60,354 nucleotides of DNA. Origin: an uncultured Acidobacteriota bacterium. Lineage in GTDB: Bacteria; Acidobacteriota; Vicinamibacteria; Fen-336; JAGNNV01. Below, one piece after another: positions 27,647 to 53,357 of the stretch. Position 1 is the stretch's first letter. Every line of letters starts with the position of its first letter. Where the stretch lies: assembly GCA_964396875.1 (NCBI GenBank), contig CAYNHK010000004.1, positions 1 through 60,354 of the forward strand, read 5' to 3'. The notes under the pieces are model-generated. The model had not been told where the DNA came from, made no database searches, and saw nothing but the letters and a program-made list of their open reading frames with translations. The translations under genes were made by a program, and so were the position numbers.

Positions 27647-27830
27647 CGCCAAATGGTAACCAGCCCGAAGAGGCGCACATAGACCCACTCGCTGGGGCGG
27701 CTCCAGGCCCACTTTCTTCGCACTTCCGACAAGCCGGCGAGGCCGTGCCGAATCGTTCTCAGTGGGTCGGTCTCAAACAGCGAAAGTGGGCCTTTCGTTC
27801 GGTTGGGGACCTCGGTACCTTCGCGACGCA

Positions 27831-30293: not shown

Positions 30294-30438
30294 CAAACTT
30301 TCGTACCGCGGCGTTCATCTCCGGCAACTGGCGCCACTTCTCCACCCTTCCTGTCTCCTGCGCATCGCACAGTGGGTTCGGCGAGAAGGGCGGAAGTGGG
30401 GCTTTCGTGAGGACCATGGACCCCACTAGCGTCGATAC

Positions 30439-32747: not shown

Positions 32748-32750
32748 CCG

Positions 32751-35162: not shown

Positions 35163-35181
35163 AGAGACGAAAGGACGACCT

Positions 35182-36087
35182 CTGAGAATCCCATCGGTCG
35201 AAGTTCGGAAGCGGGCCTTGCTCGCTGCATTGACGGGGCTGATGGCGGCCGCGGCGGACGCCCCGCTTTCGGCCGCGCCACCCCAGGGCCCCGCGCTCTT
35301 CTTGCCGGGAAGGGGGTCGCGGGATCTCCTGCTCGCCGGAGCCACGTTCTCGCCCGATGAACGATCCGTCTACTTCACGAGGTACTCCGCGTTCACGGTC
35401 GAGGCCGTGAAGACGATCCTTGTCTCCCATCGGACCGGAGACGAGTGGTCGGATCCTGTGCCGGTGTCTTTCTCCGGTCGATGGTCCGACACGACACCGT
35501 TCGTTTCGCCCGACGGACGGCGGCTCTACTTCGCGTCGAACCGGCCGGTCAAGGGTGAGACGAAGGAAGACTTCGACATCTGGTTCGTCGAGAGAAACGG
35601 AGACGGATGGAGCGAACCCCGCCATGTCGGGGCGATCAACGGTCCGGCGAACGAAACGTCACCCGCCCTCACCGCTTCAGGGGTTCTCTACTTCTGTTCG
35701 TGGCGAGAGGAGGGGAGCCTGGGGCTCGGAGACCTCTGGCGCGCGGAGCCCGTGGCCGGCGGATTCGGCTCGCCCCGTAATCTCGGGCCGACCATCAATG
35801 GGCCCAGCGGCGAGTGGGGCGTGACCGTGAGTCCGGACGAGCAGCTCATCGTGTTCGAGTCGTCCGGCCGACCGGAGGGGCTCTCGGGCGCTGGTGACCT
35901 TTACATGAGCCAAAGGGTCAATGGGACGTGGGCACCGGCGGTCCATCTGAAGGCGCCGATCAATTCGGCCGGGAGCGACCTAGCTCCACGGGTTTCGCCT
36001 GACGGTCGGGAGTTGTATTTCGCCAGTACTCGGAGCGGTCATCTGCAAATGTGGCGCGTCCCGCTGCCCGTGAGCCTGGAACGCTGA
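35182..36087 (+). CDS. PD40/TolB-like beta-propeller repeat protein, exported
   Basis: Repeats FSPDERSVYF, VSPDGRRLYFASNR, VSPDEQLIVF, VSPDGRELYFASTR. The signal-like segment VEVRKRALLAALTGLMAAAADA requires a start at or before 35200. CTG at 35182 sits 6 nt after AAGGA. The start codon is uncertain (ATG 35104, TTG 35218 and ATG 35242 are alternatives). Confidence 0.72.
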   Translation: MRIPSVEVRKRALLAALTGLMAAAADAPLSAAPPQGPALFLPGRGSRDLLLAGATFSPDERSVYFTRYSAFTVEAVKTILVSHRTGDEWSDPVPVSFSGRWSDTTPFVSPDGRRLYFASNRPVKGETKEDFDIWFVERNGDGWSEPRHVGAINGPANETSPALTASGVLYFCSWREEGSLGLGDLWRAEPVAGGFGSPRNLGPTINGPSGEWGVTVSPDEQLIVFESSGRPEGLSGAGDLYMSQRVNGTWAPAVHLKAPINSAGSDLAPRVSPDGRELYFASTRSGHLQMWRVPLPVSLER

Positions 36088-36094
36088 TCACCCT

Positions 36095-37876
36095 TCAGGG
36101 ACTGAGACACAGACCCACGCGGTGGCCAAACCCCGTGCCTTCCGCCGCGAACCCCGCGCCGCTTCTCAAAACGCGCGAGGCCGGGGCCGGCATCGCGTCC
36201 CAGCCCAATCGCGTGGCGAGGCGGCGATGCGCGTCATCGTAGGTCAGGCTCAGCATCGTCGAACCTCGCTGGGAGTCACGGGCGGGCAGGCGGATGTTCA
36301 ATCGCCACTGGCCGTCAACCGTCGCGACATCGATCGTCTCCGGCCTGGAGCCGAAAACCGCGGAAAGATCGGCCGCGGGCCACTCGCGACGCCAGATGAG
36401 TCCCGAGCCCTTCGGATGTCGCGGGCAGCCGGTGACGCGCCTGTCGCCTCCACCCCAGATGAAGTGGGGAGACGCTGGGTCGCCGCCGCAGGCCGCAGTC
36501 CACAGGTCGGGGCCACCTGGTTTGGAAAGCACCCCCTGCAGCGCCTGGGCCCACTCGGCGTCTGTGAGATCGCCTGCCATTTCTTTTTCGTTCCTGGCCG
36601 CATCCGGTCGCAACCAGCGGGGCACCGGCCCCTCGCCCACAAACCATGCGCAATGGGTCGAATCGCAGACGTCGGCTTCCGGGTGACGCGCGCCGCGCTG
36701 GAGGTATCGCAGGGCCGCGGACCCAAGTTGCGTCCGCAGGACACCCGCGGTCGTCCCAAGTTCGGCCTTCAGAACACCATTCGCGTAGTCGCGCGCGCTC
36801 ATGGTCGCCACGAGACGAATGGGCCCTGCCTGATCCACGACCGCGATCGCCCCGCGAATACGCCTCTCGAACTCAGGATTCTCCGCGGTGATCCGCCACA
36901 GGCCCGCTGAGAAGCGATCTCCAGGCACGGCGTTTACGGAGCCGCCGGGGCCGATAAATCCGCGCGACGAATCGGCGGGACCCGTGCCGATGTTCTGAAG
37001 GCGGACTTCATCGAGCCGCAATTCGTCGAGCATTCGAACGAGCACAGGGTCTTCGAGACCGCGCTTCTTCTCGCGCGGCCTCACCCGTGACGAGGCGCCC
37101 GTGGGCACGGATCGTCGGCCCACGCCGGTTCGAATCTTCGCGATCTCGTCTCCCGCCCGGATGGCCGCTTCACGCCCGGTGCCGCGTCGAAGCAGCCCCA
37201 GAAACGCGAAGCCGCCATCATCAACGGCCATCACGAAACCCGAGGTCCGAAGGGGCGCGCCATCGAGGGCGGGCACGGTTCCGGTCTTGGCCATGAAGCC
37301 AAAGAGCCGAAGGCCGGATGCCGTTCCGAAAAACGCCGACTCCTTCATGCCCTCGATCAACTCTCGACGGACGTCTTCGCGGCTTGTCCAGGGAGAGCGA
37401 ACGAGTTCGGCGTAGCTCGCGAGCAGCCGCTCGGGCGCGATAGTCACGGCCGCGGGCCCCGGCAGACCGATGGCCTCGGCCTCGCTCATCTCGCCCGCCC
37501 AGGAAAAGCCCGCGTCGAGGAACGATTCCCTTCTCGCTCCCGCGGGAGTGTCGCGCGCGATCTGCAGGAAGTAGGAGTTGCACGACTCGCGGATTGCGCC
37601 GCGCAGGTCGAGAGAGCCGTGGCCGCCGGGGCGCCAGCAGCCCGAAGTCCTCGTGCACATGATCCGGGGCGTCGCTTCCCGCGCATGCGCGGAAGCCCAC
37701 GCTCGCATCAGGAAGGGCTTCTGGAGCGAACCCACGGCGAGGCGCGCTTCTTTGGGAGTCCCAACGATCTGAATCTGTCCACGATTGCGGACCCACGCAT
37801 CGAAGTCGGCGGCCGACAGGGGCCCGGCAGCAAGCGCGCTCAGTATCAGCGCGGCAATCGGGGCCCGGCGCGCCAA
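36095..37876 (-). CDS. Fusion protein: compact penicillin-binding/class-D-beta-lactamase-like domain + SpoIID/LytB-like domain
   Basis: Signal peptide MARRAPIAALILSALAAGPLSA. SxxK = SLQK (aa 50-53, nt 37718-37729), SxN = SCN (aa 98-100), KTG (aa 197-199). The C-terminal half carries SARDYANGVLKAELG...DVCDSTHCAWFVG, like the SpoIID signature. TTG start immediately follows the upstream TAG. Confidence 0.8.
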   Translation of the reverse strand: MARRAPIAALILSALAAGPLSAADFDAWVRNRGQIQIVGTPKEARLAVGSLQKPFLMRAWASAHAREATPRIMCTRTSGCWRPGGHGSLDLRGAIRESCNSYFLQIARDTPAGARRESFLDAGFSWAGEMSEAEAIGLPGPAAVTIAPERLLASYAELVRSPWTSREDVRRELIEGMKESAFFGTASGLRLFGFMAKTGTVPALDGAPLRTSGFVMAVDDGGFAFLGLLRRGTGREAAIRAGDEIAKIRTGVGRRSVPTGASSRVRPREKKRGLEDPVLVRMLDELRLDEVRLQNIGTGPADSSRGFIGPGGSVNAVPGDRFSAGLWRITAENPEFERRIRGAIAVVDQAGPIRLVATMSARDYANGVLKAELGTTAGVLRTQLGSAALRYLQRGARHPEADVCDSTHCAWFVGEGPVPRWLRPDAARNEKEMAGDLTDAEWAQALQGVLSKPGGPDLWTAACGGDPASPHFIWGGGDRRVTGCPRHPKGSGLIWRREWPAADLSAVFGSRPETIDVATVDGQWRLNIRLPARDSQRGSTMLSLTYDDAHRRLATRLGWDAMPAPASRVLRSGAGFAAEGTGFGHRVGLCLSP

Positions 37877-39505
37877 CTACTTCGCCGCGGGTGTGCCGGC
37901 AGGCGCGGGTGTGGGAGGCGGCGCAACCGCGCCGAAGACAATGCGCTCTTTGAAGGACGAGCCGGTCACGCGACGCTCCACCTCGAGTGTGCGCACCGAG
38001 GGCATCCAGCCAAGAAGGCCCAGAACCCGATCGGAGAGAGGTCTCACGTTGTCGGACGAGCGTGGACCTTCGATGCGCGCCCAGCGCTTCCCCTCTTCGC
38101 GCGCGGCCGCGAGATTGAGCTTCGCGAACCGAACCACCTCACTGCTCCACGAGACCGCGGGAGCGGAACGAAGTTCGGCGGCGCTCGGACCGAGCCAGAC
38201 GAAATCGCCCATGCGCCTCCAGGCGAGTACAGGCAGACCCGGCCCCATCAGGTATTGACGTGTTTCCCCCGTGGCCGAAGGCGGCGAAAGACGCGCGCCG
38301 CGGCGGTCAAGGGTTGCCTCGAGAAGCGCGCCGAGTTCCGCATCCTTCTCCTTGGGCCACGGAAGGGCAAGGAGACGCGCCTTCGAGCGGTTGACGAGGT
38401 AGCCGAAGCCTTCGACCGGCTGGGACGCGAGAAGCGCTACCCACGCGTCGAGTTCCGCGGCCTCGGTCACAAGCCCCCCGCCCGAAACCGCGGGCACTTC
38501 GACGTTGATCGCGTAACGGTCCTCAGCACTCGCCGCCCTGGACGCGGGAAGCGGTGCGACGGCCACCTGCGGGCGATCGCTCGGGACCGGCAATGGCTCG
38601 CTCACTCCTCGGCGCAGTTCGAGAAGGAACCGGGACGCGTCACCGATCCAGCCGCTCGCCACCGCGTCCTTCGCATCGAAGATCGCACCGCGTTTCGATG
38701 CCACGGCCGCCTCCCCCTCGCGCACCTCGACCAGCCGTCCAGACTCGAGACGAAGCGCGGCACTGAGTTTCCCGCGCGACTCGCCCGCCTCCGCGAGTGA
38801 TCCAAACAGGAAATCGCGCTTGAAATAGAGATCGTTCCGAAGCGCTTCGAGGTCGAGTTCGAGGCTCGCCAGCCCTTCGAGCTTCGGCGCGAAGCGCTCC
38901 CCCGCAGCCACGGCGCCGAGGGCGAGTTTCATGGCTCGTTCGGAAGTAGCGATGATCAGAAGTCCGGAGTCGCGCGCCCACGCCAGGCCCATGCGGGTTT
39001 CGCCGTCGGCGCCTTCATCGGCGGCGCCGGTGCGCACGAGGTGATACGTCTTGCCCTGATCGATTCGCGACGTGCCCGCCTCGAAGATATCGGGCAGCGC
39101 GGCAAGCGGAGTTTCGACCACGAGAACCATCTCCATGTGACCGATGTTGAGCACGGCCAGCGCCGCCGCCGTTGCCTGCAGGTCGAGGATCGTCTGGAAC
39201 GACAGCGCCGTCTCTCCGCGGAACCGCGACCACTGATCCTGGAGCTTCGCGCCCACCTGACTCTGGTTGAAACCCCGCGCGACACCGTCATCCTCGGGAA
39301 GGGTTCCGTGAAGAGCTTTCCGGAAACCGCCGCCGAGCGCGGCATCGAAGGCAGGCACGTCGGGGATCGAGAGGCGGATCATCGACGCGGGAAGAGGCAG
39401 TCCCTGCTCAGGCGTCGGTTGCGCCCAGGCAAGAGCTGCGATCAGGCTCAGACCAAACGTCAACGCGAGGGTAAAGCGCGGACGACGAGCGGGGATCATC
39501 ATCAT
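37877..39505 (-). CDS. Exported hypothetical protein, 542 aa, no recognised domain
   Basis: Signal peptide MMMIPARRPRFTLALTFGLSLIAALAWA, balanced composition, Pro/Ala-rich C-terminal tail. ATGA overlap with the upstream gene at 39502-39505. Confidence 0.65.
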   Translation of the reverse strand: MMMIPARRPRFTLALTFGLSLIAALAWAQPTPEQGLPLPASMIRLSIPDVPAFDAALGGGFRKALHGTLPEDDGVARGFNQSQVGAKLQDQWSRFRGETALSFQTILDLQATAAALAVLNIGHMEMVLVVETPLAALPDIFEAGTSRIDQGKTYHLVRTGAADEGADGETRMGLAWARDSGLLIIATSERAMKLALGAVAAGERFAPKLEGLASLELDLEALRNDLYFKRDFLFGSLAEAGESRGKLSAALRLESGRLVEVREGEAAVASKRGAIFDAKDAVASGWIGDASRFLLELRRGVSEPLPVPSDRPQVAVAPLPASRAASAEDRYAINVEVPAVSGGGLVTEAAELDAWVALLASQPVEGFGYLVNRSKARLLALPWPKEKDAELGALLEATLDRRGARLSPPSATGETRQYLMGPGLPVLAWRRMGDFVWLGPSAAELRSAPAVSWSSEVVRFAKLNLAAAREEGKRWARIEGPRSSDNVRPLSDRVLGLLGWMPSVRTLEVERRVTGSSFKERIVFGAVAPPPTPAPAGTPAAK

Positions 39506-42500
39506 CTGGCCACCTGCCGCGAAAGATCAGCCTGGACGATCTGCGAGATGAGACCAAAAGTGAGATCGCGGGGCCGATAGAGCAGGGAGCGACCACCGAC
39601 GACCCGGTGCGAAACCGTGGGCGGCTCGACCGTCGCGGAGGAAAGTTCGGCACGCAGGGCCCGAGCCTCCGACCATCTTCGATCGGCGAGAAGGTCGAGG
39701 GCGCGCCCGACTTCCGCACGGTCGCCATTGCCCGCGGCGATTCTCGCGATATCGGCGAGGGCCGCATCGATGTCGGAGGCCTTGAAACGCCGGCGGGTCA
39801 AATCCAGGGCCGCCGACTCCGCGGAGAGGAAGCCGGCCAACGTTCGCGCGGCTCGCGGCGAAGCCACGAGCGACCTCGCGGCGCGAAGGCGCAGGAACGT
39901 CTCGTCGCCGCCGACATCTATGAAACCCAGATCCTCCACATCGCGAAGTGCGCGCGCGGCGAGGAAGGCGAGCTGCGGAGCCATCGCGGTGGGACGCCGG
40001 AGCGCGGCTCGCGCGGAGAGGATGTCGAACGGGTGATCCCTGAGGCGCGCCTGAAGCGACGCGCCGATGGTCTCGGGGCTCTCGCGCCAGAAACGGAGGG
40101 CCTGTTTCCATGCGTCCGGACCGGCGCCGCCCGCATCGATCGACCGACGCCAGAAGTCGAAGGCGCGGATCTCCTCAGCGCGCGCGAAGAGAACCTTCTC
40201 CCGTGCGCCGGCCATGTAGACAGCAGCGTCCCGTCTGCGGCCGACGCGGTTCAACCAGTCGGCGCGCTTCTCCACCTCGGCGAACGCCGACCAGAAGGGC
40301 CGCGCCTGCGCGATCCATGGCCCCGCCAGTTCGGGTGCGTACCGAACGAGATGACTCACAACGTCCGCATGCTGGTAGCCGGCCACATCGCCGCGGCGAT
40401 AGGCCTTTCGCAGCCGTTCGCCAATCCCGGCCTTCGCGGAGGGGTCGGCGATCTCGAGACGCATTCCCCAGAACTCGAGGAGGTGCGGCTGGTCCTCGAT
40501 CGTCTGATCGAGGGCGGCCTGCACGTCGGCTTCGATCAGGCCGAGTTTCCGGGCGGCCACGAAAGGCTCTCGGAGCGTGCGAAGCCACAGGGTCCCGGGC
40601 CCGGGGTCCGCGGCATCCTCCGCATCTCCGCCGCTCCAGTCCGTCCGGACGCTTTCCACATCTCCCTCAGTGTCCAGTGTGTCGGCACCCGCTATCGCGG
40701 AGATGGGCCTGAACGTGAGAGCGGGCGGAGTTTGCATCGAGGTCAGCGCCGCTTTGAAGAGGGCCACCGCGAGGGCGTCCTCTCCTCGAGCGAGGCGGAC
40801 GCGGATCATCAGCACCCGTCGCGCGTCAGCGTCCCCAACCTCCAAAGGAATGGCATCGAGAGCGGCGGTGTCGGGAAGGCTGTCGATGGCAACGATCGCG
40901 CGGGTGCGATCGGCGGAGGGAACGGTCTCCGCCCACGAAGCGGCGACGGGCCAGAAGTCGCCGAGCCGAGCAAGACCCGCGTGTGGAAGCGGGGCGGATT
41001 CGGTGGCCCACAACTCGGCGAGCCAGACGCGAAGTTCGGCCGCTTCGAGCATGGCCGCCTTGTCGCCCCACCTCGCGCCAAGCGCCGCACGGAATCCAAC
41101 CATGTCTTCGGTCCGGAAGCGGCGACCTGCTTCGGCGCCGGCCGTGTCGTAGATCGAGGCGAGCAATGCGGGCAGGACCGGGACCGCGGGGTCAAGCAGG
41201 GACAGGGGCGCGGGCAGGCCGAGATCCTCCGCCATCGACGCATACGCGCGCAGCGTGTCCTCGTTCAGACGATTCTGATCCGCAACGAGGCGTCGCTTGA
41301 GATCGTCGACAGCCTCGGCCTTGCGTCCGGCATCCACGAGCAGGCGCAGACGGAAGCGCAGCAGTTCGGGATCGGTGGTGCGCAGGCCGAGACTCTCGAT
41401 CCGGGCCAGGGCCTCGGCGGGACCCTTGAGCGCCAGGGCCAGACGCGCGGTGAGAAGAGCCCGTTCGGTTTCGCCGCCTGATTCAGGCCACTCTGCGGGC
41501 ACGTCGATGGCGGATGGATCGTTGGCCCGATAACGCGCGTAGGCCTGAAGGGCGAACCAGGCGAGGCCGGGGCGTTCACCCCACAAAGCTCCGGGGAAAC
41601 GCAGGGTGTCGATGCCGCGGCCCGCCACGCGATCGTCACCGGTCTCGATCACGTTGCCGGTCACGTCCGTCCGCGGTTTGAACATCGGCCACGTGAACTT
41701 CGGATCCGCGCCGAGTATGTCCTTGAGGACACTCGGCCCGAGCAGCTTCGTCGCGAAGTCGTTTTGGGCAGTGAAAACGGCAGTGTCGCTCAGGAGCGCG
41801 CCCAGCGACAACGATGTCTCGTTGACCGTGTTGCGGCGACCGATCAGGACCGGATCCTCGAGATTCGCGGCGTTGGTCACCGGCCGCTCCCAGAACGACA
41901 ACCACGCGATGCGCGACTCCGGCTTCAGTTCGCTCAGCAGGAACGAGACCTCCCAACCGCGGGCGCCGATCGCGCGGAAACGCTCCCACACACGGCGATC
42001 CTCGAAGATCGCCGAGAGGCCCGCCATGAGTTCGGGCTCAGTTCGCAACCCGCGCGCGAACGTCTCCATCGCAGCCCTGGAATCAAGCCACGTTGTCCAT
42101 CCTTCGCGAGGGCTCTCGGCGGTGATGACCGAAGGGCCACGGGCGATACCGATCAGCGCGGTCAGCCGGGGGCCGAGGAACTTCGCGAGGTCGGAAGCGC
42201 GATCGAACCGCACGAGATGCGACGCCCAAAGCGCATCGAAGTCCGGACCGCGGACCCGATATTCGCTCCCGCTGCCGTCGGCCTTGTTCACACTCACGAG
42301 GACCTGATCGGCGGCCTCGTTCAGGAAATCGGCAGGCGTCTCCTGGGTCCACGGACCGCTCACTTGTCGCGCGAAGCGCTGAGCGATCCGATACCGGAGG
42401 GGAGCCTCGAGGCGCGACCGCTCGATGAAGCTCCACCACTTGTTGAGAAAGGCCTCATCCGCGCGGGACGAGGGGAAGGTCTTTTCGAGGAGCCAGTTCA

Positions 42501-45500
42501 GGACCTGCTCGCGATTCTCGATTCGGCCGTACTGACCGAGAACGTCGCCCGCGGATCCCAGTCGATCTGCGTTCTCGAGATCGACGTTGAGCAGCGGCAT
42601 GAAAGTGTCGTTGAGCAGAGCGAGTTGGAATGCCTCTTCGAAGGAGAGGCTCGAAGCCTCGACTTCTTCGGGCGAACCCTGAGGAGAGAGGAAGCGCCAG
42701 GCGAGGCGGGGCTGACCCTGACGCCACAACCTTCGCGCGGCATCCGCGGTGCGATTCCCCAGATCCTCCTCGGTGGGCTCGGTCTTCTCGAAGGCCTCAA
42801 GAGCCGCACGCTCCACCGCCACCGCCTTCACGAGATCTCCGCCTCGAATGTACAGCTCGCTTCGCCGCCCCGCGACGTAGGGATCGTCGGGCCGCTGAAC
42901 GTTCCAGCCCTCGAGGAAGTCGGCGGCTTCGACGAATCGGGCATCGCGCTCCATCAGTTCGACCGCTTCGTCCCAGAGCACCTGGCGCTCGGGCCGGATG
43001 CGGGCCGCGGTTTGAGCCATCTCGATACCGCCCGGGAGATTGTCGGTGGCGACCCTGAGTTCGCGCGCGGCCACCGCCCATCGCACGTCGCGCGGCGAGC
43101 GCTGGTGCTGCCGCTCGAAGAACGAGACGAGGGTCTCGGGCTGCCCCGACTTGCGCGCGGTTCGGGCGGCTTCCTTGAGCCAGTCGCGCTGGGTGCTGCG
43201 ATTGAGCGCCTCGATCCACGTCGAAACCGAGGTCGCGTAGACCTTCTCGACCGCAGCGGCCCGCGCCACCTCCGCGAAGACCTGGGCCCGGAGTTCGGGT
43301 CTGAACTTCGCGGCCTCCGTCGTCGCGAAGGCTACCGCGGCAAAGGAAGGGTCCTGCTGAAAACGAAGCCTCGCCTGGAGGGAGATGGCGCCCAGCCGCT
43401 CGTCGTCGGTGAGGGACGCCGTGTTCAGAAGCCGATCGAGGGCTTTGGAGGCCCGTGGGAGATCCTTCTCGCCGAGCGATTCCGAAATCAGCCGCGTGAG
43501 GAGAGGGACGAGGTGACCGGAGGCGGCACGCACGGTCGCATCTTCGAGCGCCTGCCTCGCCTCATCGGCGCGGCCGTTGCGTCGCAGAAACTGGACGCGA
43601 TCTTCGATGACGCCGAGGCTCCAGGGGTATTTCGCGATGAGTCCGCCCCACGATGCGCGGGCGGGCTCGAAACCGCGGGTCCTTTCTATGAAGGAGGCGC
43701 GGGCCACAAGAGCCTGGATCTTCGAAGCACTCTCCGGCATCCCATCGATTCGTCCGCCGAGGGTGACCCACAAGGCGTCCGCCTCGGCCTGACGGCCAGC
43801 ACTCGCGAGGCGTTGGGCCAGGTCGATTTCGAGGCGCAGACGCTCCTCGACCGTCGGCGCCAGCTCGGCCCGGCGGGCCACGATGCCCGTGAAGAAGCGA
43901 TCCCGCGCGTCGTTGGCGCCCCAGGCAGGGGACGAATACGCGTGAGCCGCACTTTCGAGGGCGCTCAGAAACCGGTCCGTGGTCGCCGTGGGCGTCATCG
44001 CCGCCGCGCGGGCCAAAAGCGCCTCCGCCACCTTCGCGATTCCCGCGTGTTCGTTGCCTCGCGCAGCGAGCCGCTTCGCCTCTCTTTCTTCTCGGCCCAC
44101 CGGATCGTTCGGCTGATCCATCGCGTCGATCCAGTCGTCCGCGTCCCAATCGAGGCCGGGCGTGGGGGTATGGATCGAGCCGAGTGGCCAGAACGCGAGC
44201 AATGTCTTCTCATCGTCGGCGTGGCCCGGCTTGAGCGATTCGATCGCGACGAGGACGCGGCTGAGCACGCGCTCCCGGCCCATCCACTGAGCGAGGCGTC
44301 GGAGCGAACGCTGGTCATTTTCAAAACCGGAGCAGTAGCAGTCGTCGCTCTCGCCTTCGGGCCGAACCGCATCGAGATACTCGCGGATCGCGCCATCGAT
44401 GTCCTTCACTTCCTCGCGGAGCACACCGGCCTCGAACGCCAGCATCGTCGGCCGATCGAGGGCCTTGCGCCCGGCCTCGATGGTGTCGAGCGCCTCCTTC
44501 ATATGGCCGTAGTCCCAGAGAAGCGTGGCGGTTTCGCGAATTCGCTCTTCCTGACGCGGGTCTCGATCGAGCAGGGCCTTCCAGATCGTGAGCGCCATCT
44601 CCGGTCGGCCCGTTTCCTGGTACAGCTCACCCAGTTCCGTGATCAGCGGATTCGGGTCGATCAACGCGGGGACCGCTCGGTCGACGACGGCCTTCGCCGG
44701 CGCTTCGTGGGAAAGGTCGAGGCCGGCGAGTGACCGGTGGATCTGCAGCGCCTGGCGTGCGGCCGGCTCGTCGCCGGGGTAGGCGGCGGAAAGCCGTGAG
44801 GCGGCGTCTGCCGCCTTCTCGAAGAGCGAAAGACGCGAATAACCCTCCACAAGAATGATGTCGTCCACCGGGGTCCGCGCGGCGGCGCGCTCGAGAGCGG
44901 CGAGCTTCGCTTCGATCGCGTTGTCCTTCATGAGACCGGCGAAGTACGCCTCGCGCACCGAAGGGTCGACCGCGAAGATCGCCCAGCGGCGCTCGGCGAG
45001 CAGGGAGTCCTCGACCACCGCGGCCTGTCGTGCGTTGGTGGCGCGTGCGCTCGACCGCGCCCACGCGGAGGCGGTGATCAAGCGGCCCTCGGCGGCGTGG
45101 AGGACGGCCGGACTGTGCGGGAAACGTTCGAGGGCCTTGAGCACAACCCAATCGCCCCAGGGAACGAGACGCGTGCGGGTCCCGACCCTCGGCTGTTCGG
45201 GGATCTCGAGGCGGATGCTGGTGTCCGAGGAGCGTTCGAACATCGCGGCGCCGCGGAACGTGGCGGCGATCCGTTCGGCCAGCGCGCGCAGTTCGATCTG
45301 CCGCTTCTGACGGGTGAGGACGCGGGCCAGGCGGTTCCACCACGAAGCGTCTTCGAACCGCGAAAGGGCGGCTTCATAGCGCGGGGCCAGTTCGTCGTCG
45401 AGATTCCATGCGTCGAGGCGCGACGCGAGCTGAAGCCACAAGGCCTCGGCGTTTGGGAGGCGATCCATTTCGCCGAGCAGAAGTCCTATGGAACTGCGGT

Positions 45501-47205
45501 GCGTCTTGTCGCGCTCCTCGAGCCGGCTGATCGCCTCGTCCAGAAGCGGCTGGTATCCACGCTGCCCCGCTTCCCGGCCGTCGTCGCCCTCGGCGAAATC
45601 ACCAGCGGAAAAACGTCGGACCGAGTCGCCGCCGTATTCAGCGATCGCGGGCTCGGAGCCATCTTCGGCAAGGCCGCGGAGTTGCGCCTTGTAGAGACGA
45701 ATCTCCTCGGCAAGCGTCCCCCGCGTCTGGCGCAGGGCGAGCAAGCCCAATCTCTGCGCACGCCGCCTGGCCATCGCGGACCCGGTGGCCTCGATCTCCT
45801 TGAGCAGGGCCAGCGCCTCTTTCCCCTCGCCGCGATCGACGTGGCGCTGCATGACATCCACCTTGAGATCGGGGATCTCCGGGTTGGTGGCGTTGCGTCT
45901 CGCGAGTTCGGCGAGCAGGGCCCGCGCGGCTCCGAACGTGCGCTCCGGTATCGACTCGGCTTCAAGCCGGCTCAGCGCCTCACCCCAGTCCTGACCGGTG
46001 AGAAGAAGAGACAAGCCGCCGGTCCAGAAGCCCGGCGTCGGATCCATCCGCGCCACCCAGCGATAGTCGGCGTCCGAGTAGTTTCCCCAGGCGAGGGGAC
46101 GGCCGCCCGCGCGCAAGGCGAGACGGATCAGTTCGGCGAGATCGGCTTCAGCGGCTTTGGGATCCGCAAACGTAGCCGCGGCGAGCCGCGCGCGGAACGC
46201 TTCGGGAACCGCGTCGATCTCGGAGTAGAGCGATGAGACCAGAGCCCAGCCCGCGCGATCGAGGTCTTTCTGGTACCGGCGATCGATCTGTTGGAGCAGA
46301 GCGAGGCATGCATCGCCCCGCTGCTGGCCTTTGAAATAGGTGAAGAGACGCGCGAGCGCAGGGACGTCGAAACGCGAGTTCAGGGTCTGACGCCACTCCT
46401 CCGGACGCGACTTGGCCGCCTGGTCGATCGCACTCACGTAAGCCCCGGCCAGAAGGCGTCCGCGGCGGGGATTGCGGTCAATCGCCGTCTCGAGATCGTT
46501 CAGAACCTCGGAGGCTCGAAGCTGCGCCACGCGAAGTCGGGCGCGAAGGACCAGCGCAGGTTCTTCCGGTGTGTTCTTGGGGAGATTCGCGAGGCCCTTG
46601 TCCGCTTCTTCGAGGTTGTCTCCAGAGATATCGTTGTCCACCCAGGTGTAGGCGGTGGCCCAATCGGTGGAGTTGAGTTCCAGGGCCGCGCGCTGCATCT
46701 CGCGCCGGTCACGAAGCGAGGGCTGCTGCCCCGCCCACTCGACGCGCAGGTTCGCGAGATCGCGTTGAGCCGCGCCTTTGAGGCCGGGGATGGCCTTGTC
46801 CGCGAATTCGAAAGCGCGACCGTGGGCGCCGTAAGACCACGCCCAGCGGGCGGCTTCTTCGAAACCCGCACCCGGCGCATCCGTGGCCGACGCAGACACG
46901 GCGGCAGCCCATCGCTCGATGGTGGCGAGCGCCTTCTCACGCTGACCAAGGTCCATCTGCGCCTGCGCGAGATGACGCAGAGCGTCCGTTTCGGTCCGGG
47001 CTTCGAGGAGTGTCGCGAGTTCAGCGGTGGGTGTCTTGTAGTGAACGCGATGGGAGTCGACCAGAGAGAAGCGCGTGGCGATCTCGTACAACCAGTCGAC
47101 CTCGGTGAGATCCTCCCAAGAGATCATTGGCTTCGGCGCGGCGCCGAGGAACACCGCGCCAGCCAGGCTCAAGGCGCCCACGCGAACGAGTACGCGCGGC
47201 TTCAC
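39502..47205 (-). CDS. Giant (2567 aa) exported all-alpha, TPR/HEAT-like helical protein, unknown function
   Basis: Uninterrupted 7.7-kb ORF. GTG start is preceded by GGAGG at 7-nt spacing and overlaps the upstream stop as GTGA. Signal peptide MKPRVLVRVGALSLAGAVFLGAAP. Ala/Leu/Arg/Glu-rich helical composition throughout, with no catalytic motif seen. Confidence 0.8.
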   Translation of the reverse strand: MKPRVLVRVGALSLAGAVFLGAAPKPMISWEDLTEVDWLYEIATRFSLVDSHRVHYKTPTAELATLLEARTETDALRHLAQAQMDLGQREKALATIERWAAAVSASATDAPGAGFEEAARWAWSYGAHGRAFEFADKAIPGLKGAAQRDLANLRVEWAGQQPSLRDRREMQRAALELNSTDWATAYTWVDNDISGDNLEEADKGLANLPKNTPEEPALVLRARLRVAQLRASEVLNDLETAIDRNPRRGRLLAGAYVSAIDQAAKSRPEEWRQTLNSRFDVPALARLFTYFKGQQRGDACLALLQQIDRRYQKDLDRAGWALVSSLYSEIDAVPEAFRARLAAATFADPKAAEADLAELIRLALRAGGRPLAWGNYSDADYRWVARMDPTPGFWTGGLSLLLTGQDWGEALSRLEAESIPERTFGAARALLAELARRNATNPEIPDLKVDVMQRHVDRGEGKEALALLKEIEATGSAMARRRAQRLGLLALRQTRGTLAEEIRLYKAQLRGLAEDGSEPAIAEYGGDSVRRFSAGDFAEGDDGREAGQRGYQPLLDEAISRLEERDKTHRSSIGLLLGEMDRLPNAEALWLQLASRLDAWNLDDELAPRYEAALSRFEDASWWNRLARVLTRQKRQIELRALAERIAATFRGAAMFERSSDTSIRLEIPEQPRVGTRTRLVPWGDWVVLKALERFPHSPAVLHAAEGRLITASAWARSSARATNARQAAVVEDSLLAERRWAIFAVDPSVREAYFAGLMKDNAIEAKLAALERAAARTPVDDIILVEGYSRLSLFEKAADAASRLSAAYPGDEPAARQALQIHRSLAGLDLSHEAPAKAVVDRAVPALIDPNPLITELGELYQETGRPEMALTIWKALLDRDPRQEERIRETATLLWDYGHMKEALDTIEAGRKALDRPTMLAFEAGVLREEVKDIDGAIREYLDAVRPEGESDDCYCSGFENDQRSLRRLAQWMGRERVLSRVLVAIESLKPGHADDEKTLLAFWPLGSIHTPTPGLDWDADDWIDAMDQPNDPVGREEREAKRLAARGNEHAGIAKVAEALLARAAAMTPTATTDRFLSALESAAHAYSSPAWGANDARDRFFTGIVARRAELAPTVEERLRLEIDLAQRLASAGRQAEADALWVTLGGRIDGMPESASKIQALVARASFIERTRGFEPARASWGGLIAKYPWSLGVIEDRVQFLRRNGRADEARQALEDATVRAASGHLVPLLTRLISESLGEKDLPRASKALDRLLNTASLTDDERLGAISLQARLRFQQDPSFAAVAFATTEAAKFRPELRAQVFAEVARAAAVEKVYATSVSTWIEALNRSTQRDWLKEAARTARKSGQPETLVSFFERQHQRSPRDVRWAVAARELRVATDNLPGGIEMAQTAARIRPERQVLWDEAVELMERDARFVEAADFLEGWNVQRPDDPYVAGRRSELYIRGGDLVKAVAVERAALEAFEKTEPTEEDLGNRTADAARRLWRQGQPRLAWRFLSPQGSPEEVEASSLSFEEAFQLALLNDTFMPLLNVDLENADRLGSAGDVLGQYGRIENREQVLNWLLEKTFPSSRADEAFLNKWWSFIERSRLEAPLRYRIAQRFARQVSGPWTQETPADFLNEAADQVLVSVNKADGSGSEYRVRGPDFDALWASHLVRFDRASDLAKFLGPRLTALIGIARGPSVITAESPREGWTTWLDSRAAMETFARGLRTEPELMAGLSAIFEDRRVWERFRAIGARGWEVSFLLSELKPESRIAWLSFWERPVTNAANLEDPVLIGRRNTVNETSLSLGALLSDTAVFTAQNDFATKLLGPSVLKDILGADPKFTWPMFKPRTDVTGNVIETGDDRVAGRGIDTLRFPGALWGERPGLAWFALQAYARYRANDPSAIDVPAEWPESGGETERALLTARLALALKGPAEALARIESLGLRTTDPELLRFRLRLLVDAGRKAEAVDDLKRRLVADQNRLNEDTLRAYASMAEDLGLPAPLSLLDPAVPVLPALLASIYDTAGAEAGRRFRTEDMVGFRAALGARWGDKAAMLEAAELRVWLAELWATESAPLPHAGLARLGDFWPVAASWAETVPSADRTRAIVAIDSLPDTAALDAIPLEVGDADARRVLMIRVRLARGEDALAVALFKAALTSMQTPPALTFRPISAIAGADTLDTEGDVESVRTDWSGGDAEDAADPGPGTLWLRTLREPFVAARKLGLIEADVQAALDQTIEDQPHLLEFWGMRLEIADPSAKAGIGERLRKAYRRGDVAGYQHADVVSHLVRYAPELAGPWIAQARPFWSAFAEVEKRADWLNRVGRRRDAAVYMAGAREKVLFARAEEIRAFDFWRRSIDAGGAGPDAWKQALRFWRESPETIGASLQARLRDHPFDILSARAALRRPTAMAPQLAFLAARALRDVEDLGFIDVGGDETFLRLRAARSLVASPRAARTLAGFLSAESAALDLTRRRFKASDIDAALADIARIAAGNGDRAEVGRALDLLADRRWSEARALRAELSSATVEPPTVSHRVVGGRSLLYRPRDLTFGLISQIVQADLSRQVAR

Positions 47206-49601
47206 CGGCGCACCTCCACCTTCGTCCGACCAAACCCCACGTTCTTGGCCAGATCGACGGCCTCGAAAACGACATCCTGCACTCCCGCCACGGAGGCGGG
47301 AAGCCGCACGCGGCCGGTGGAAGCGTTCGCGGCCTTGTCCCAGCGCAACGGCACCGGCGGCAGGTTGCCGACCCGAGCCGAGAGGAAGATGACGTCGTCA
47401 TCGGTGGACGCGGTCAGGACGATCTCATCGCCCACGCGCGCCAACTTCTGCACCTTCGGCGTCACCTGCGGGGCACGGCCATCGATCACGAAGGTTTTCG
47501 ACTCGGTCGCGGTGTAGCCACTTCGATCGCGCATCACGATCTGAACGCTGTAGCGCCCGTCCTTCAGCGACTCAGGAACCAGGAACCGTCCTTCAAAGAC
47601 ATTCGATTGGGGACGCTTCACGAGGGGCAGCTTCAAACCGAACGGGAAAAGAGCGGTCGCCATGACCGTGCCTTCATCACACTCGACGCGCAGCACAGGG
47701 TCACCGGGCTGGATACGTCGAGGGCGGAGGAGCGAGCGTGGCGCGGCAAGAAAGGCCGTGTAGGGAGTGACGAACTTGTAGCGGCGCGAGAGTTCGATGA
47801 TCTCGTCGACCCATTCGCGTTTCTCTCCCTCGGCTTCAATCCGACGGAGCAAATCATCGACCCGCGCGCGCGCCCAGCGTCTTGGAAGGTCGCGAGCCTC
47901 GAGGGCCTTCGCGGGCAGGGCGGCGGTGAGCGTGCTGGAATCGCGGGGCAGGATTCCCGAAGCAAGCGCGAAACGCACTTCGTTCGCAGGTCTTGAATAG
48001 CGGCCGATGAAACCGGACAGCGACTGAGCAGCAGGCGGCTGCACCAGCACGGGGTAGATATCCCTGAGGCCGGGATCGCCTGAGGTCACTCGGAGTGCGC
48101 CCTCGTTCAGTGCTGCGGACCTTGGCGCGGCCGACGCCCGGGCGGGGCCGAGGAGCCGGTCGAAGAAGAGGTCCGTCTCGGGCTCGGACGAGAGTGCGGT
48201 CACGACTCCCTCCGCGGCTCCACGCAACGCAGCGCCGACGTCAGGCGTCGCGACGCTGACATAAAGAGGCGTCCTCCTGCGCGCAGCATTGAGGTCGCTT
48301 GAGTTCGGCATCGCAACGCCATCAGTGAAAAGAACCAGCCGGCCCTTGTCTCCATCCCCGACGAGCTTTTGGGCCGCACGCAGGGCGTCGAGAATGTTGG
48401 TGCCCGGCGACAGCGCGCGATTGCGGAGCCGTTCGAGGGATGTGGTCTTCGCGAGATCGATGGCGTTCGCCATCGAAGGCGGCGCATCGACAGTGGAATC
48501 GAAAGGGACGAGGGCGAACTTGTCCGCGGGAGTCAGCGCGCCGAACAGCCGAACGAGGCGCTGATACGACATCTCGAGACCGGAAAAGCGATGCGACAAC
48601 GAAGTGTCGAAGAGCACGGCCACCGAAAGGGCGCCGCGTTTGGCCGATGTCGCCGGGTTGGCAGCGCCCGGCGTCGCGGGTGCGTTGACCGCAGGCGGAA
48701 GCACTTCCATCAGAAAGAAGCCGTCCTTCTCGAGGGGAATGTCTGCGGGCCGCTCCCAGGGGGCGAGGGCCAGGCCATCGGGCATCCGGCCGTCGGGATT
48801 GCGGAAGGCCGAGAGTTTGAGCGGCGTCTCATCGCGCAACTTGAAGCGAACGATCAGATCGCGATCGAGCTTCACGTTCGTGCCCTCGAAGGCAACACCG
48901 TCCGCCGAGGGCGTGAGAGGGAGGCCATTCGCGGTCGCTTCATGGACAAGTCCGTTCAGCCCGACCCGGATGCGAAGCGTGCGAGCCACGAGGGGCTCGC
49001 CGTCGATCGGCGCCAGGGCCATCCGGAACTCACCCTTGAGGCCAACGATGTTGACCTCCTGCTGAAACTGCAGTTCGAGCCGCTTGGTCGCCTTCGCGGG
49101 AATGGGAGCGACCTTCACCGAGAAGGGCGCGGACCCCGAGCGCGACGTCGGGGCCGGACCATCACCCGGCTCGCGGTCTTCCTCCTCGCCCTGCTGAAGA
49201 AGGCCGGGATCGATGCGTTGCGTGGTCAGCGCCTCGTAGATGGCCCGGGCCCGACGTTTCTCCAGAATCACGCCGGGAATGCGAACGAGACCATCCCACA
49301 CCGCGAAGTCGCCGATCGCCGCGGAAGGCGCAAGCGCGAAACGGTACGTGCCTTCCTGAATCTCGGCGGTGTGGTTCTCGAAGATCTGGCGCACGTTCAC
49401 GCGGGCGTAGCCGCGCGCGACAGACGCGTCGATCGTCATATCGCGCAGGGAGAGAACGGTCGCGTCCTGACGACCGGTGCTCGTGGGGACCAGGAGACCG
49501 GACTGGGCGCGCGCCGAACCGGCCGAAGCGATGAGCGCAGCGCCGAACAGCAGTCTTCCGACCTGCTGTTCTACGGCTGAACGTCGCGCTCGACCGACCA
49601 T
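47202..49601 (-). CDS. Exported VIT + von Willebrand factor A domain protein
   Basis: Signal peptide, then a VIT-like segment (VARGYARVNVRQIFENHTAEIQEGTYRFALAPSAAIGDFAVWDGLVRIPGVILEKRRARAIYE). The VWA domain has a complete MIDAS: DTSLS (aa 332-336, nt 48594-48608), GTN, FTDG. Beta-rich C-terminus. Confidence 0.85.
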   Translation of the reverse strand: MVGRARRSAVEQQVGRLLFGAALIASAGSARAQSGLLVPTSTGRQDATVLSLRDMTIDASVARGYARVNVRQIFENHTAEIQEGTYRFALAPSAAIGDFAVWDGLVRIPGVILEKRRARAIYEALTTQRIDPGLLQQGEEEDREPGDGPAPTSRSGSAPFSVKVAPIPAKATKRLELQFQQEVNIVGLKGEFRMALAPIDGEPLVARTLRIRVGLNGLVHEATANGLPLTPSADGVAFEGTNVKLDRDLIVRFKLRDETPLKLSAFRNPDGRMPDGLALAPWERPADIPLEKDGFFLMEVLPPAVNAPATPGAANPATSAKRGALSVAVLFDTSLSHRFSGLEMSYQRLVRLFGALTPADKFALVPFDSTVDAPPSMANAIDLAKTTSLERLRNRALSPGTNILDALRAAQKLVGDGDKGRLVLFTDGVAMPNSSDLNAARRRTPLYVSVATPDVGAALRGAAEGVVTALSSEPETDLFFDRLLGPARASAAPRSAALNEGALRVTSGDPGLRDIYPVLVQPPAAQSLSGFIGRYSRPANEVRFALASGILPRDSSTLTAALPAKALEARDLPRRWARARVDDLLRRIEAEGEKREWVDEIIELSRRYKFVTPYTAFLAAPRSLLRPRRIQPGDPVLRVECDEGTVMATALFPFGLKLPLVKRPQSNVFEGRFLVPESLKDGRYSVQIVMRDRSGYTATESKTFVIDGRAPQVTPKVQKLARVGDEIVLTASTDDDVIFLSARVGNLPPVPLRWDKAANASTGRVRLPASVAGVQDVVFEAVDLAKNVGFGRTKVEVRR

Positions 49602-51454
49602 CGTGTCAACCCCTCGTCCGTCCCGATGTAGAGAAAGCCGTCCTTCACGAAAAGCGCCGTCACGCGCGGCGACGGCAGCGATAGCTTAAGCCGTTCGAAC
49701 CGCGTTCCATCCATCGAAAGTCGGTAGAGACCCGTGCCGTCGGTTCCGGCGTAAACCCGACCGCTCGCGGACACCAGACAGCCGGTGTTGATCTTCAGAC
49801 CCTGGGTCTCAGCGAATGGTCGCCAGTCGCCAGGATCGGACATCGCGCCCACGCGCCGGGTGAGTCCGCCACCATAGGTGCCGATGAGAACACCGTCTTC
49901 CACAGGCAGGATCGCTGTGACCCACGGGTGAGGCAACCTGCCTTCTCCCGAAGCCACGCGCCATCGCACCTTCAGATCTTCGACGTAGCCGAGCCCCGAG
50001 GGAGTTCCTACGAGCAGACCCATCCCGACGGAAGCAAGGGCGGTGGCCTGATTTCCGGGAAGGCCGTGAAAGGCGGAGAGGAGCTTGCGCTCGGGCAGGA
50101 GCACACCTTCGCCGAAACCAATGGCGACGCCGCCGCGTGTCTGGGCGAGGGAGAACGCAGCTCCCGAGCCCTCGACCCGCATCACACGTGCCCCGTCGAA
50201 CCGGAAGGCGCCGCGCAGACTGGCGACATGGAGAGCGCCGCCGGCATCCAGCAGGCCATTCACGGCCCAGACCGCCGAGGCCGGATCGGGCAGAGATCGA
50301 AGCATCATGGGCTCTTCGGATCTGGCGAGAGCGCTGGCATCAGTCGATCGCGCCGCCGGGACAAGTTCGGCGAGACCGCCGTCGAAGAAGCCCGCGACGA
50401 TGCGCCCGCGATACTCGGTGAGGGCGCCGACATGAGCACTTCCAAAGCTCTCCTGCTGGCGTCGCCTCGAAGCCAATCGCCACGCGCCGTTCGCTCTCTC
50501 GACAAGGTCGTTCGAGGCATCCGCCATAAGTCGGTCCCCCACTGTGAAGACGCGTCTCACCTCAGCGGGAAGCCGCTCGACCTGAACGCGACCGGCGGCG
50601 TCGAAGCGCCGCACCGAGGTGTCGGGAGGATCGGATGTCGCGAAAAGCTGGTCGCCGAGAACCGCGATCGAACCCACGGCCGCGCCATTCGGCACGGCCC
50701 GCATCACCCCGTCCACATCCTCCGCGAAGAGACCGATGGGCGTGACCGCGTGGACTCGCCCATCGAAAACGGCGACGGCGTCGATCCAGGGCGTGTCGAG
50801 GCCCTCGATGCTTTTCGGCTTCGTTACACCTCCCTGAGTCACGAAAAGTCCCGTCTCCCCGCCGCTCAGCACGCGTCCGGCATCCGAGACCGCGATCGCA
50901 CGAATCGGAAACTGATGCAGCCGAGCCATCGTCCGCTCGGCGAAACCGATGCGGAACAGACCTTCCCGCGCGCCGATCCAGAGTTCGCCGGCAGGCGTCT
51001 CCGCCAGAGTTCGAACGTGCAGCGTCCCAAATCCGGTCCTGATCTCGGACCACGCGCCGTCCCGATAGACGAACAGGCCCTCCTGGCCCAGGCCCACCGC
51101 GAGGTCTCTCCGCCAGGCGGAGAGGGCGGTCGCCCGTCGAGTGGGCAGGGGCAGAGACATGTCGATAGGCGCGAGCCCGTTGTCGCTCGGATCGCGGGAT
51201 GTCTCCAGCCGCACGACGCCCGAAGCACCCGCCAGGTACAGCCCTTCCGGCAGTGCGACCACCGCCTCGACATCCTGGCCGCCCCAGAAAGGAAGCGGCG
51301 AACGCTCCGGCACGGGCACGAATTCGACGGGTTGCTCCCGGGCCGCAGGGGCCTCCAATGCCCTTTCCACACGCCGATTCAAGAAGAACCCGATAGCGGC
51401 CACGGACGTCAGGGCGATCGCGAATCCGATCCGCAAGAGTTTCCCGCGAGGCAT
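49571..51454 (-). CDS. Membrane-anchored beta-propeller protein (two-component-regulator-propeller/Reg_prop-like repeats), no output domain
   Basis: A single N-terminal TM (LLRIGFAIALTSVAAIGFFL) followed by repeated G.LW.G...GLF/GLY motifs (ELWIGAREGLFRI, LLVGTPSGLGYV, VLIGTYGGGLTR, FLYIGTDEGLTRW). The 3' end overlaps the next gene by 31 nt. Confidence 0.72.
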   Translation of the reverse strand: MPRGKLLRIGFAIALTSVAAIGFFLNRRVERALEAPAAREQPVEFVPVPERSPLPFWGGQDVEAVVALPEGLYLAGASGVVRLETSRDPSDNGLAPIDMSLPLPTRRATALSAWRRDLAVGLGQEGLFVYRDGAWSEIRTGFGTLHVRTLAETPAGELWIGAREGLFRIGFAERTMARLHQFPIRAIAVSDAGRVLSGGETGLFVTQGGVTKPKSIEGLDTPWIDAVAVFDGRVHAVTPIGLFAEDVDGVMRAVPNGAAVGSIAVLGDQLFATSDPPDTSVRRFDAAGRVQVERLPAEVRRVFTVGDRLMADASNDLVERANGAWRLASRRRQQESFGSAHVGALTEYRGRIVAGFFDGGLAELVPAARSTDASALARSEEPMMLRSLPDPASAVWAVNGLLDAGGALHVASLRGAFRFDGARVMRVEGSGAAFSLAQTRGGVAIGFGEGVLLPERKLLSAFHGLPGNQATALASVGMGLLVGTPSGLGYVEDLKVRWRVASGEGRLPHPWVTAILPVEDGVLIGTYGGGLTRRVGAMSDPGDWRPFAETQGLKINTGCLVSASGRVYAGTDGTGLYRLSMDGTRFERLKLSLPSPRVTALFVKDGFLYIGTDEGLTRWSVERDVQP

Positions 51455-51482
51455 GGGGGCGAGAGGGTAGCATCGCGCTCAC

Positions 51483-53345: not shown

Positions 53346-53357
53346 AGTTCCCCCGCC

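Follow-up and report, generated by a model that had tools for sequence, protein, structure and literature searches.

Several described envelope systems resemble parts of the locus that we report here. In the sortase-dependent systems collected under TIGR03788, a VIT-VWA protein is encoded together with a dedicated wall-directed transpeptidase, and the Glt gliding complex of Myxococcus brings together periplasmic TPR proteins and a VWA adhesin. The Mag complex of Pseudomonas (PMC5764988, PMC3735191) and the A2M systems share the layout of an exported multi-gene operon with one giant protein, inner-membrane anchoring and a link to peptidoglycan (PMC5764988), while ITIH heavy chains become ester-linked, through their C-terminal Asp, to the C6 hydroxyl of N-acetylgalactosamine or N-acetylglucosamine (PMC4661386). 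Here we analyse a cassette of five genes, P1 to P5, found in a 60,354-nucleotide stretch of DNA from an uncultured Acidobacteriota bacterium (assembly GCA_964396875.1, contig CAYNHK010000004.1, positions 1 to 60,354), which we call the window. Acidobacteriota are among the most abundant bacteria of soil and wastewater, and their cell envelope is almost unstudied.

The cassette encodes an anchored propeller (P1), an ITIH-like VIT-VWA protein (P2), a giant that is the signature component of the set (P3), a secreted protein of a family without a name (P4) and a fusion of a transpeptidase with a SpoIID-like domain (P5). Its individual domains (VIT, VWA, Reg_prop, TPR, penicillin-binding protein (PBP) and SpoIID) are ordinary, and what appears new is the cassette as a whole. 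It is a lineage-specific envelope set of Acidobacteriota.

Conservation of the cassette and of its four-gene core

A first-pass annotation of the window had described five co-directional open reading frames (ORFs) on the minus strand, joined at four junctions into one coupled unit of exported proteins, and we reproduced all of its coordinates and junction strings (Table 1). One genome per species was then scanned with an alignment of the giant P3, which yielded 64 loci, all of them in metagenome-assembled genomes, and gene order in these loci was read by tblastn with the five window proteins. Apart from a few odd ones, their labels read Vicinamibacteria, Holophagae (Holophagaceae, Holophaga, Geothrix) or simply Acidobacteriota, and many of the carriers come from soil or sludge. 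The closest P4 homologue is 94% identical, and the named P4 matches belong to Vicinamibacteria and Holophagaceae, which places the host in the class Vicinamibacteria. A look-up of the exact P4 sequence had no hit, so that the index consulted does not contain the source genome.

Wherever the contig was long enough, the genes stood in the order P1-P2-P3-P4-P5 and on the same strand. P1 lay upstream of P2 in all 43 loci with enough sequence, and in 42 of 45 P5 followed P4 at a distance of 3 kb or less. The block of the window is found again, its order and orientation unchanged, in 64 further genomes. Clustering all ORFs of the flanks revealed no sixth conserved gene, and no other flank family occurred in more than six loci.

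The junctions were conserved as well. With the chosen start codons, P1 and P2 overlap by 31 or 28 nt in 9 of the 43 loci, including the close Vicinamibacteria L007 and L011, and the remaining loci have a spacing of -14 to +2 nt, which gives an overall range of mostly -31 to +2. A start codon allowing a 4-nt overlap is present at the P2/P3 junction in 46 of 51 loci and at P3/P4 in 35 of 44; at P4/P5 such an overlap is possible in 23 of 42, the rest having mostly gaps of 0-42 nt and, in a few cases, inserted genes. Because these stop/start overlaps persist at 40-45% protein identity, their retention argues for selected co-translation, and the description of the five genes as one coupled unit holds, with its order found again in 64 genomes and its overlaps conserved. 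Two opposite-strand genes (DUF4440/SnoaL-like and DUF2071; 11544-12883) stand between P4 and P5 in L002/L036, where P5 is kept. Since these insertions separate P4 from P5, the link of P5 to the core is looser than the links within the core.

A diverged version of the cassette was also found in Blastocatellia. A profile search with P4, covering 1.84 billion representative proteins, found only 86 representatives of the family: some ten core proteins of full length, numerous fragments and a second tier. The second-tier matches (E 1e-9 to 1e-4) are mostly 500-640 amino acids long and cover only P4 residues ~65-265; one remote match (P0301, in L070) was set aside, as it is not within a cassette. 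Five second-tier contexts have a common order: Reg_prop propeller, VIT-VWA protein, TPR giant and P4-like protein. The propeller (~620 amino acids) is present in the four loci that reach upstream of the VIT-VWA gene, the VIT-VWA protein measures ~780-850 amino acids, and the TPR giant measures ~2,400 and is split in one locus. These loci are true relatives: full-length comparison with the window proteins gives 32-34% identity for Blastocatellia P2 (E ~1e-100), and Blastocatellia P3 is collinear at 22-27% identity. Their clade is Pyrinomonadaceae/Blastocatellia, with 235 protein clusters. Because this version has four genes, with no P5 within 10 kb, P1-P4 are an old core common to three Acidobacteriota classes, and P5 is a lineage-specific addition in the Vicinamibacteria and Holophagae branch. 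The locus with the split giant (L073, in the Blastocatellia metagenome-assembled genome GCA_016713405.1) has a guanine-cytosine (GC) content of 34%, compared with 54-74% in the other measured loci and ~67% in the window; its giant is divided into ORFs of 1,557, 555 and 266 amino acids, and genes for a UDP-glucose dehydrogenase and an epimerase follow downstream.

Each of the five window proteins has a single hydrophobic segment in a segment scan, located at the N-terminus, in agreement with the earlier statement that every product carries a signal peptide or a single transmembrane anchor; P4 has an additional, borderline 19-residue hydrophobic window at residue 112. Ala-x-Ala-type cleavage sites are found in P2, P4 and P5, the P1 anchor is flanked by charged residues, and the P3 signal or anchor is followed by Pro. 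The N-terminal signals of all five proteins are kept in the orthologues of both clades.

The frames of P1-P5 have a third-position GC bias like that of the other window genes. Long antisense ORFs of up to 1,195 amino acids run over the block (for example 41764-44733 and 49928-53515, both on the plus strand); their third-position GC is below that of the coding frames, and they are therefore high-GC artefacts, not genes. Promoter- and terminator-like sites inside the block did not exceed the count in shuffled sequence, which is compatible with a single transcript and lends that idea slight support.

Table 1 Features of the cassette and of the genes divergent from it, with positions in the window
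Feature	Position (nt)	Strand	Description
P1	49571..51454	-	627 aa; ORF as listed
P1 membrane anchor	51374-51430 (aa 9-27)	-	N-terminal hydrophobic segment, followed by Reg_prop-type beta-propeller repeats
P1/P2 junction	49571..49601	-	31-nt overlap, ATG...TAG
P2	47202..49601	-	799 aa; ORF as listed
P2 signal peptide	N-terminus	-	cleavage ARA/QS
P2 VIT	49068-49448	-	Pfam VIT 1.1e-16
P2 VWA	48102-48620	-	VWA_2 1.7e-5 (under Pfam cut-off)
P2 MIDAS DTSLS	48594-48608 (residues 332-336)	-	with T401 and D427
P2 linker end G633-D634-P635	47697-47705	-	invariant in alignments
P2 C-terminal Ig/cadherin-like modules	47205-47696	-	profile match
P2/P3 junction	47202..47205	-	GTGA stop/start overlap
P3	39502..47205	-	2567 aa; ORF as listed
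P3 N-terminal signal/anchor	47128-47205	-	hydrophobic segment
P3/P4 junction	39502..39505	-	ATGA stop/start overlap
P4	37877..39505	-	542 aa; ORF as listed
P4 signal peptide	39416-39505	-	cleavage AWA/QP
P4/P5 junction	37874..37879	-	TAG, then TTG start, no gap (TAGTTG)
P5	36095..37876	-	593 aa; ORF as listed
P5 transpeptidase domain	37127-37804	-	class-B PBP-type, N-terminal
P5 SLQK	37718-37729 (S50-K53)	-	SxxK motif
P5 SCN	37577-37585 (S98-N100)	-	SxN motif
P5 KTGT	37277-37288 (K197-T200)	-	KTG motif
P5 SpoIID-like domain	36098-36799	-	C-terminal
P5 YANGVLKAEL	36758-36787 (Glu372)	-	catalytic-Glu motif
P5 CDSTHCAWF	36641-36667	-	SpoIID-like block
P5 GHRVG	36113-36127	-	SpoIID-like block
Three genes divergent from P1, 28 bp away	51483-56512	+	membrane protein, epimerase, GT2

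The five proteins and their described relatives

The first-pass annotation had called P3 a helical giant. Its length of 2,567 amino acids was confirmed, but the word helical rests on composition and on weak TPR matches only. The protein has a long region rich in Ala, Leu, Arg and Glu that looks TPR-like. Pfam gave sub-threshold TPR/ARM matches and nothing stronger, both for the window protein and for 13 further giants, and a profile search of the PDB found no relatives, returning only designed TPR proteins or noise. The Blastocatellia homologues have clearer TPR matches in Pfam. Aligned with its orthologues, at 42-92% identity, P3 is collinear and almost gap-free over its full length; such near-gapless conservation would be more typical of a structured, contact-rich scaffold than of an adhesin built from repeats.

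P2 resembles ITIH1-4 in having a VIT domain, a VWA domain with a metal-ion-dependent adhesion site (MIDAS) and a conserved post-VWA segment, in that order, and each of these three regions matched ITIH1 or ITIH4 in PDB profile searches. Its PDB profile matched ITIH4 (2.5e-13) and ITIH1 (2.1e-6) over the VWA domain, the linker weakly matched both proteins, and the tail matched the cadherin-like modules of SraP (2e-3). Unlike ITIH1-4, P2 is a bacterial protein with a Sec signal and a tail of two Ig/cadherin-like modules, and it has no bikunin or TSG-6 partner. The Blastocatellia orthologues have Pfam VWA, VWA_2 and VWA_3 matches that are not marked weak or faint. Where the annotation had assigned a MIDAS adhesion domain, the MIDAS is indeed complete in the window protein, as it is in the Blastocatellia orthologues, but most Holophagae orthologues have lost its Thr (to Ala) and its Asp (to Ser).

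One stretch of P2, YKFVTPYTAFLAAPRSLLRPRRIQPGDPVLRV, is near-invariant in all clades. It spans 32 residues and contains G633-D634-P635, a triplet that is invariant across three classes at 34% overall identity and that lies where the ITIH-like part gives way to the C-terminal Ig modules. This Gly-Asp-Pro may be a processing site.

P1 matched Reg_prop in Pfam (1.5e-8), and a profile built from 19 orthologues matched the PDB entries 4a2l (3.8e-15) and 3v9f (5.6e-14), which are periplasmic sensor domains of Bacteroides hybrid two-component systems, as well as PorZ (5m11, 1e-3). P1 thus has propeller repeats like those of the Bacteroides sensors (BT4663, 4a2l) and of PorZ. In contrast to the hybrid sensors, it has only ~8 residues before its anchor and ends with the propeller. 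A role as a two-component sensor was rejected, as P1 has no kinase (HisKA/HATPase), receiver or AraC/DNA-binding module. Because its cytoplasmic tail is short and these signalling modules are missing, P1 cannot signal as the hybrid sensors do; by analogy with their sensor domains, it may bind glycans.

P4 had no match in Pfam or NCBIfam. Its homologues gave scattered sub-threshold Pfam matches, each in at most 3 of 47, ten remote P4-like proteins yielded nothing usable in Pfam, and a sequence-profile search of the PDB returned only noise. An AlphaFold2 model (predicted local distance difference test (pLDDT) score 76.6, predicted TM-score 0.73) had a single significant fold match, TP0453 of T. 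pallidum (3k8h; E 9e-4, TM-score 0.43 on the target, 12% identity). TP0453 itself associates with the outer membrane and has been proposed as a lipid carrier (PMC5421087). The two share an alpha/beta/alpha sandwich fold, but P4 is twice as long, is not a lipoprotein and has no detectable sequence similarity to TP0453. P4 is a secreted alpha/beta protein.

P5 joins a class-B PBP-type transpeptidase to a SpoIID-like domain, as had been annotated, and motifs, homologues and a structural model support both domain calls. Every P5 motif is invariant, in sets of 20 and 41 orthologues; in the C-terminal half the invariant patterns are Y..GV..AEL, CD.THC..F and GHR.G. The N-terminal half matched PBP2/MrdA in the PDB profile search (1.8e-7), the top Foldseek matches of an AlphaFold2 model (pLDDT 81.8) were the transpeptidase domains of SpoVD, PBP3 and PBP2 (E 4e-10), and Pfam Transpeptidase was found in 39 of 41 homologues, the window protein itself giving only a weak match. 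As in the class B PBPs (PBP2/MrdA, PBP3, SpoVD), the fold is accompanied by SxxK, SxN and KTG motifs, and P5 also has a PBP2-like CW..GHG...SCN.YF block. It differs from them in having no membrane anchor, pedestal or dimerisation domain (no PBP_dimer match). Its transpeptidase domain is compact (~225 amino acids) and begins ~25 residues in, right after the signal peptide; no FtsW/RodA gene, which would encode the SEDS partner of a class B PBP, occurs among the scanned ORFs of the window.

The whole-chain Foldseek search was dominated by the PBP domain, and a C-terminal profile search was used for the SpoIID-like half. Its sole PDB match was SpoIID (4rwr, E 0.12), with the catalytic-Glu motif and GHGVG aligned, and Pfam SpoIID was the second most frequent Pfam match among the homologues (28 of 41, best 6.5e-5). 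The patterns Y..GV..AE, D.T..C..F/Y and GHG/RVG align with SpoIID of B. anthracis, although the P5 domain is very divergent from SpoIID/LytB and the host is not a spore former. The SpoIID assignment is supported, if not beyond doubt, and the predicted P5 keeps the catalytic residues of two peptidoglycan-active folds. The SpoIIDMP engulfment machine was rejected as a match, with neither a SpoIIP amidase nor SpoIIM in the window or the conserved flanks.

The earlier judgement that the set matches no named system was borne out by Pfam, NCBIfam, PADLOC, the PDB sequence and fold searches and the literature. Of the profile and structural searches that had been proposed for all five proteins, modelling and fold search were carried out for P4 and P5, and no profile search placed the set in a known pathway. 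We found no description of the cassette in the literature, of which our coverage was incomplete. Every named system that we considered was rejected because at least one of its testable defining features fails. TIGR03788, a family of marine proteobacterial sortase targets, is the best NCBIfam match of P2 (1.5e-22), but its score of 79.8 bits is far under the cut-off of 551; the window has no LPXTG signal and no sortase, and P2 ends in ...GFGRTKVEVRR with no hydrophobic tail. The cassette resembles these systems in pairing a VIT-VWA protein with a wall-directed transpeptidase, and differs from them in that its transpeptidase is PBP-type, not a sortase, and is absent in Blastocatellia. For PEP-CTERM/MSEP-CTERM, TIGR02921 scored 19 bits against 200 and TIGR04286 15.6 against 150, in the VIT region only and with no sorting tail. 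An anti-phage defence system was also rejected, with no PADLOC match at E<=0.01 for the five proteins and the divergent neighbour. The annotation had further stated that no MoxR/DUF58 partner, sortase, LPXTG or PEP-CTERM signal, ATPase or kinase is attached to the block, and our check of every sizeable window ORF, in which no kinase, ATPase or sortase was found attached to the cassette, agrees.

Genes around the cassette

The first of the three genes divergent from P1 encodes a protein of 620 amino acids with ~10 transmembrane segments and no Pfam match. The second encodes a NAD-dependent epimerase and the third a GT2 glycosyltransferase fused to an AMP-binding-like region. These genes, a cluster of the envelope-glycan type, were rejected as members of the unit, since they are syntenic with the cassette only within close Vicinamibacteria.

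On the other side, a PD40 (TolB-like) beta-propeller gene (34942-36087, plus strand) is convergent with P5, with 7 bp between the stop codons. Two genes for MacB/FtsX-type permeases lie at 27660-30293 and 32748-35162 on the plus strand (span 27660-35162), and between them is a gene (30930-32747, plus strand) whose product combines FG-GAP repeats with a TPR region. Farther away, a planctomycete-type pair (11438-17395, minus strand) encodes a DUF1592/1588/1587/1585/1595 protein with a cytochrome-c-like motif and a DUF1552 protein, and is adjoined by a gene for a 682-amino-acid ankyrin-repeat protein. A secretin with an N-terminal TPR motif (8067-10645, minus strand), whose gene overlaps a LolA-like gene, is the only secretion-type component of the window; it lies ~26 kb from the cassette and is not syntenic with it elsewhere.

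In two loci with more than 72% GC and no P5 (L029, 11006-13753; L050, 13890-15632), an M1 aminopeptidase gene stands shortly downstream of the cassette. In L029 a single small DUF4019 gene separates it from the cassette; in L050 the distance is ~4 kb and includes two other ORFs.

Scaffold, tethering and other readings of the cassette

We tentatively favour a model in which the block encodes a wall-attached scaffold in the periplasm, with P5 cutting and re-linking the sacculus in this lineage. In this model P1-P5 would probably be transcribed and translated as one unit, and their products would assemble in fixed proportions in the periplasm. The core would consist of P1, P2, P3 and P4, in a complex that P1, and perhaps P3 as well, would fix to the inner membrane. 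P1 would be an inner-membrane-anchored propeller of the glycan-binding Bacteroides-sensor type, P2 a secreted ITIH-like VIT-VWA-Ig component, P3 a TPR-like solenoid serving as the scaffold of the complex, and P4 a secreted alpha/beta protein that may touch membrane or lipid. The module of Vicinamibacteria and Holophagae would have acquired its own peptidoglycan enzyme, P5, whose local action would be to cleave glycan strands and to re-link or trim stem peptides, and the resulting opening of the sacculus would let the large scaffold insert into it or be held on it. TPR proteins such as LpoA, CpoB and NlpI organise peptidoglycan enzymes, and specialised lytic transglycosylases make room in the sacculus for other large envelope machines. 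What the sequences show is the order, coupling and conservation of the genes, the export signals, the domains of P1, P2 and P5 and the invariant catalytic motifs of P5; from these we infer that the products form a complex with P3 as its scaffold, that P1 binds glycan, that peptidoglycan is acted upon, and what purpose the cassette serves.

Several observations weigh against this model. The first-pass annotation had already proposed a wall scaffold or remodelling complex; the domains of P5 agree with that idea, but the idea leans on P5, which is accessory and absent in Blastocatellia. No P5 homologue was found within 10 kb of the cassette in any of the five Blastocatellia loci, and P5 was not near the cassette in 3 of the 45 loci of the closer clade, all of them high-GC. 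Because of these absences the core would seem to function without an adjacent wall enzyme, and because P5 is accessory the function of P1-P4 need not be peptidoglycan remodelling. P5 itself could act otherwise: a transpeptidase domain standing alone might work as a carboxypeptidase or endopeptidase, or might only bind, and the window P5 was not reported for Pfam SpoIID at E<=1. The TPR nature of P3, drawn from sub-threshold matches only, is weakly indicated, as is the modelled fold match of P4 to TP0453. Finally, reading P2 as a MIDAS adhesion protein does not hold for the family as a whole.

Among the alternatives, we consider it unlikely that the cassette builds a glycan-tethering matrix, in which P2 would be cleaved at Gly-Asp-Pro and its new C-terminal Asp would form an ester with a hydroxyl group on a sugar, either in peptidoglycan or in a polysaccharide of the cell surface. 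Binding of the glycan would fall to P1 and organisation of the reaction to P3, and the product would cross-link or stabilise the envelope or a biofilm matrix. This reading draws on the ITIH-like VIT, VWA and post-VWA linker of P2, on the invariance of G633-D634-P635 in three classes at the ITIH-like/Ig border, and on the sugar-nucleotide and glycosyltransferase genes that adjoin the cassette in Vicinamibacteria and at one Blastocatellia locus. These neighbouring sugar genes, however, are not conserved across clades, and no TSG-6-like transferase is present. The known ITIH sites, GDPH/DPHFII, carry a His that the P2 motif does not have, and the invariant Asp-Pro may be purely structural.

An improbable alternative, prompted by the layout of the cassette (an exported giant with several small exported proteins beside it, a tie to the inner membrane and a protein directed at peptidoglycan), is a periplasmic defence and repair kit like A2M with PBP1c or the Pseudomonas Mag complex. 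The giant and its partners would guard the periplasm from incoming enzymes, and the wall enzyme would mend the damage. Yet the cassette shares no protein family with the Mag/A2M systems. Pfam, NCBIfam and the PDB gave no A2M-type match for P3 or its 13 orthologues (A2M-PBP1c and Mag systems alike) and no macroglobulin or thioester signal in P3, no Mag or Yfa family was matched, and P5 has no glycosyltransferase domain, so that it is not a bifunctional PBP1c-type enzyme.

It is very unlikely that the proteins form a trans-envelope link for surface movement or force, like Myxococcus Glt or the recently proposed TolQR-coupled vWA transducers, with a motor encoded elsewhere. VWA and TPR proteins are combined in those systems too (PMC12204202), inner-membrane anchoring is predicted for P1 and P3, and P4 is similar to a protein that associates with the outer membrane. 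But the scanned ORFs of the window hold no gene of the MotA/TolQ/ExbB or ExbD families, the conserved flanks no TolQ-, TolR-, ExbB- or ExbD-like gene, and P2 has a cleavable signal peptide in place of a transmembrane helix with a motor-binding motif. The reading of the cassette as a variant Bat/MoxR-type VWA-TPR aerotolerance operon, which would also join VWA and TPR proteins with envelope signals in one operon, is hardly credible: by Pfam, neither a MoxR AAA+ ATPase nor DUF58 occurs in any sizeable window ORF, neither is found in the conserved flanks of >45 loci, Bat proteins have no VIT domain, giant, propeller or P4, and P2, with its cleavable signal peptide, its VIT domain and no other hydrophobic segment, differs from the membrane-anchored VWA proteins of BatA/BatB type.

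The wall-attached scaffold that we tentatively favour could also be combined with covalent tethering. In this bolder form, to which we give little credence, a giant solenoid would be tied covalently to envelope glycans by an Asp-Pro-processed, ester-linked P2, and P5 would open and reseal the sacculus in Vicinamibacteria and Holophagae. If true, this would be a previously unknown way of building a diderm envelope in Acidobacteriota and a bacterial counterpart of heavy-chain-to-glycan transfer, which to our knowledge has so far been seen only in the extracellular matrix of animals.

The cassette is a module of four to five genes kept in fixed order across three Acidobacteriota classes, with signs of purifying selection on every part of the 7.7-kb P3 gene and, in P5, a new pairing of a PBP-type with a SpoIID-type domain. 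Two of its proteins, including the one of 2,567 residues, fall outside any described family. Together, the conservation, the fixed order and the unplaced families point to an important, unknown envelope structure. The cassette offers an entry point to the structure of a very large putative scaffold of the periplasm, and might allow ITIH-like chemistry to be examined in bacteria.

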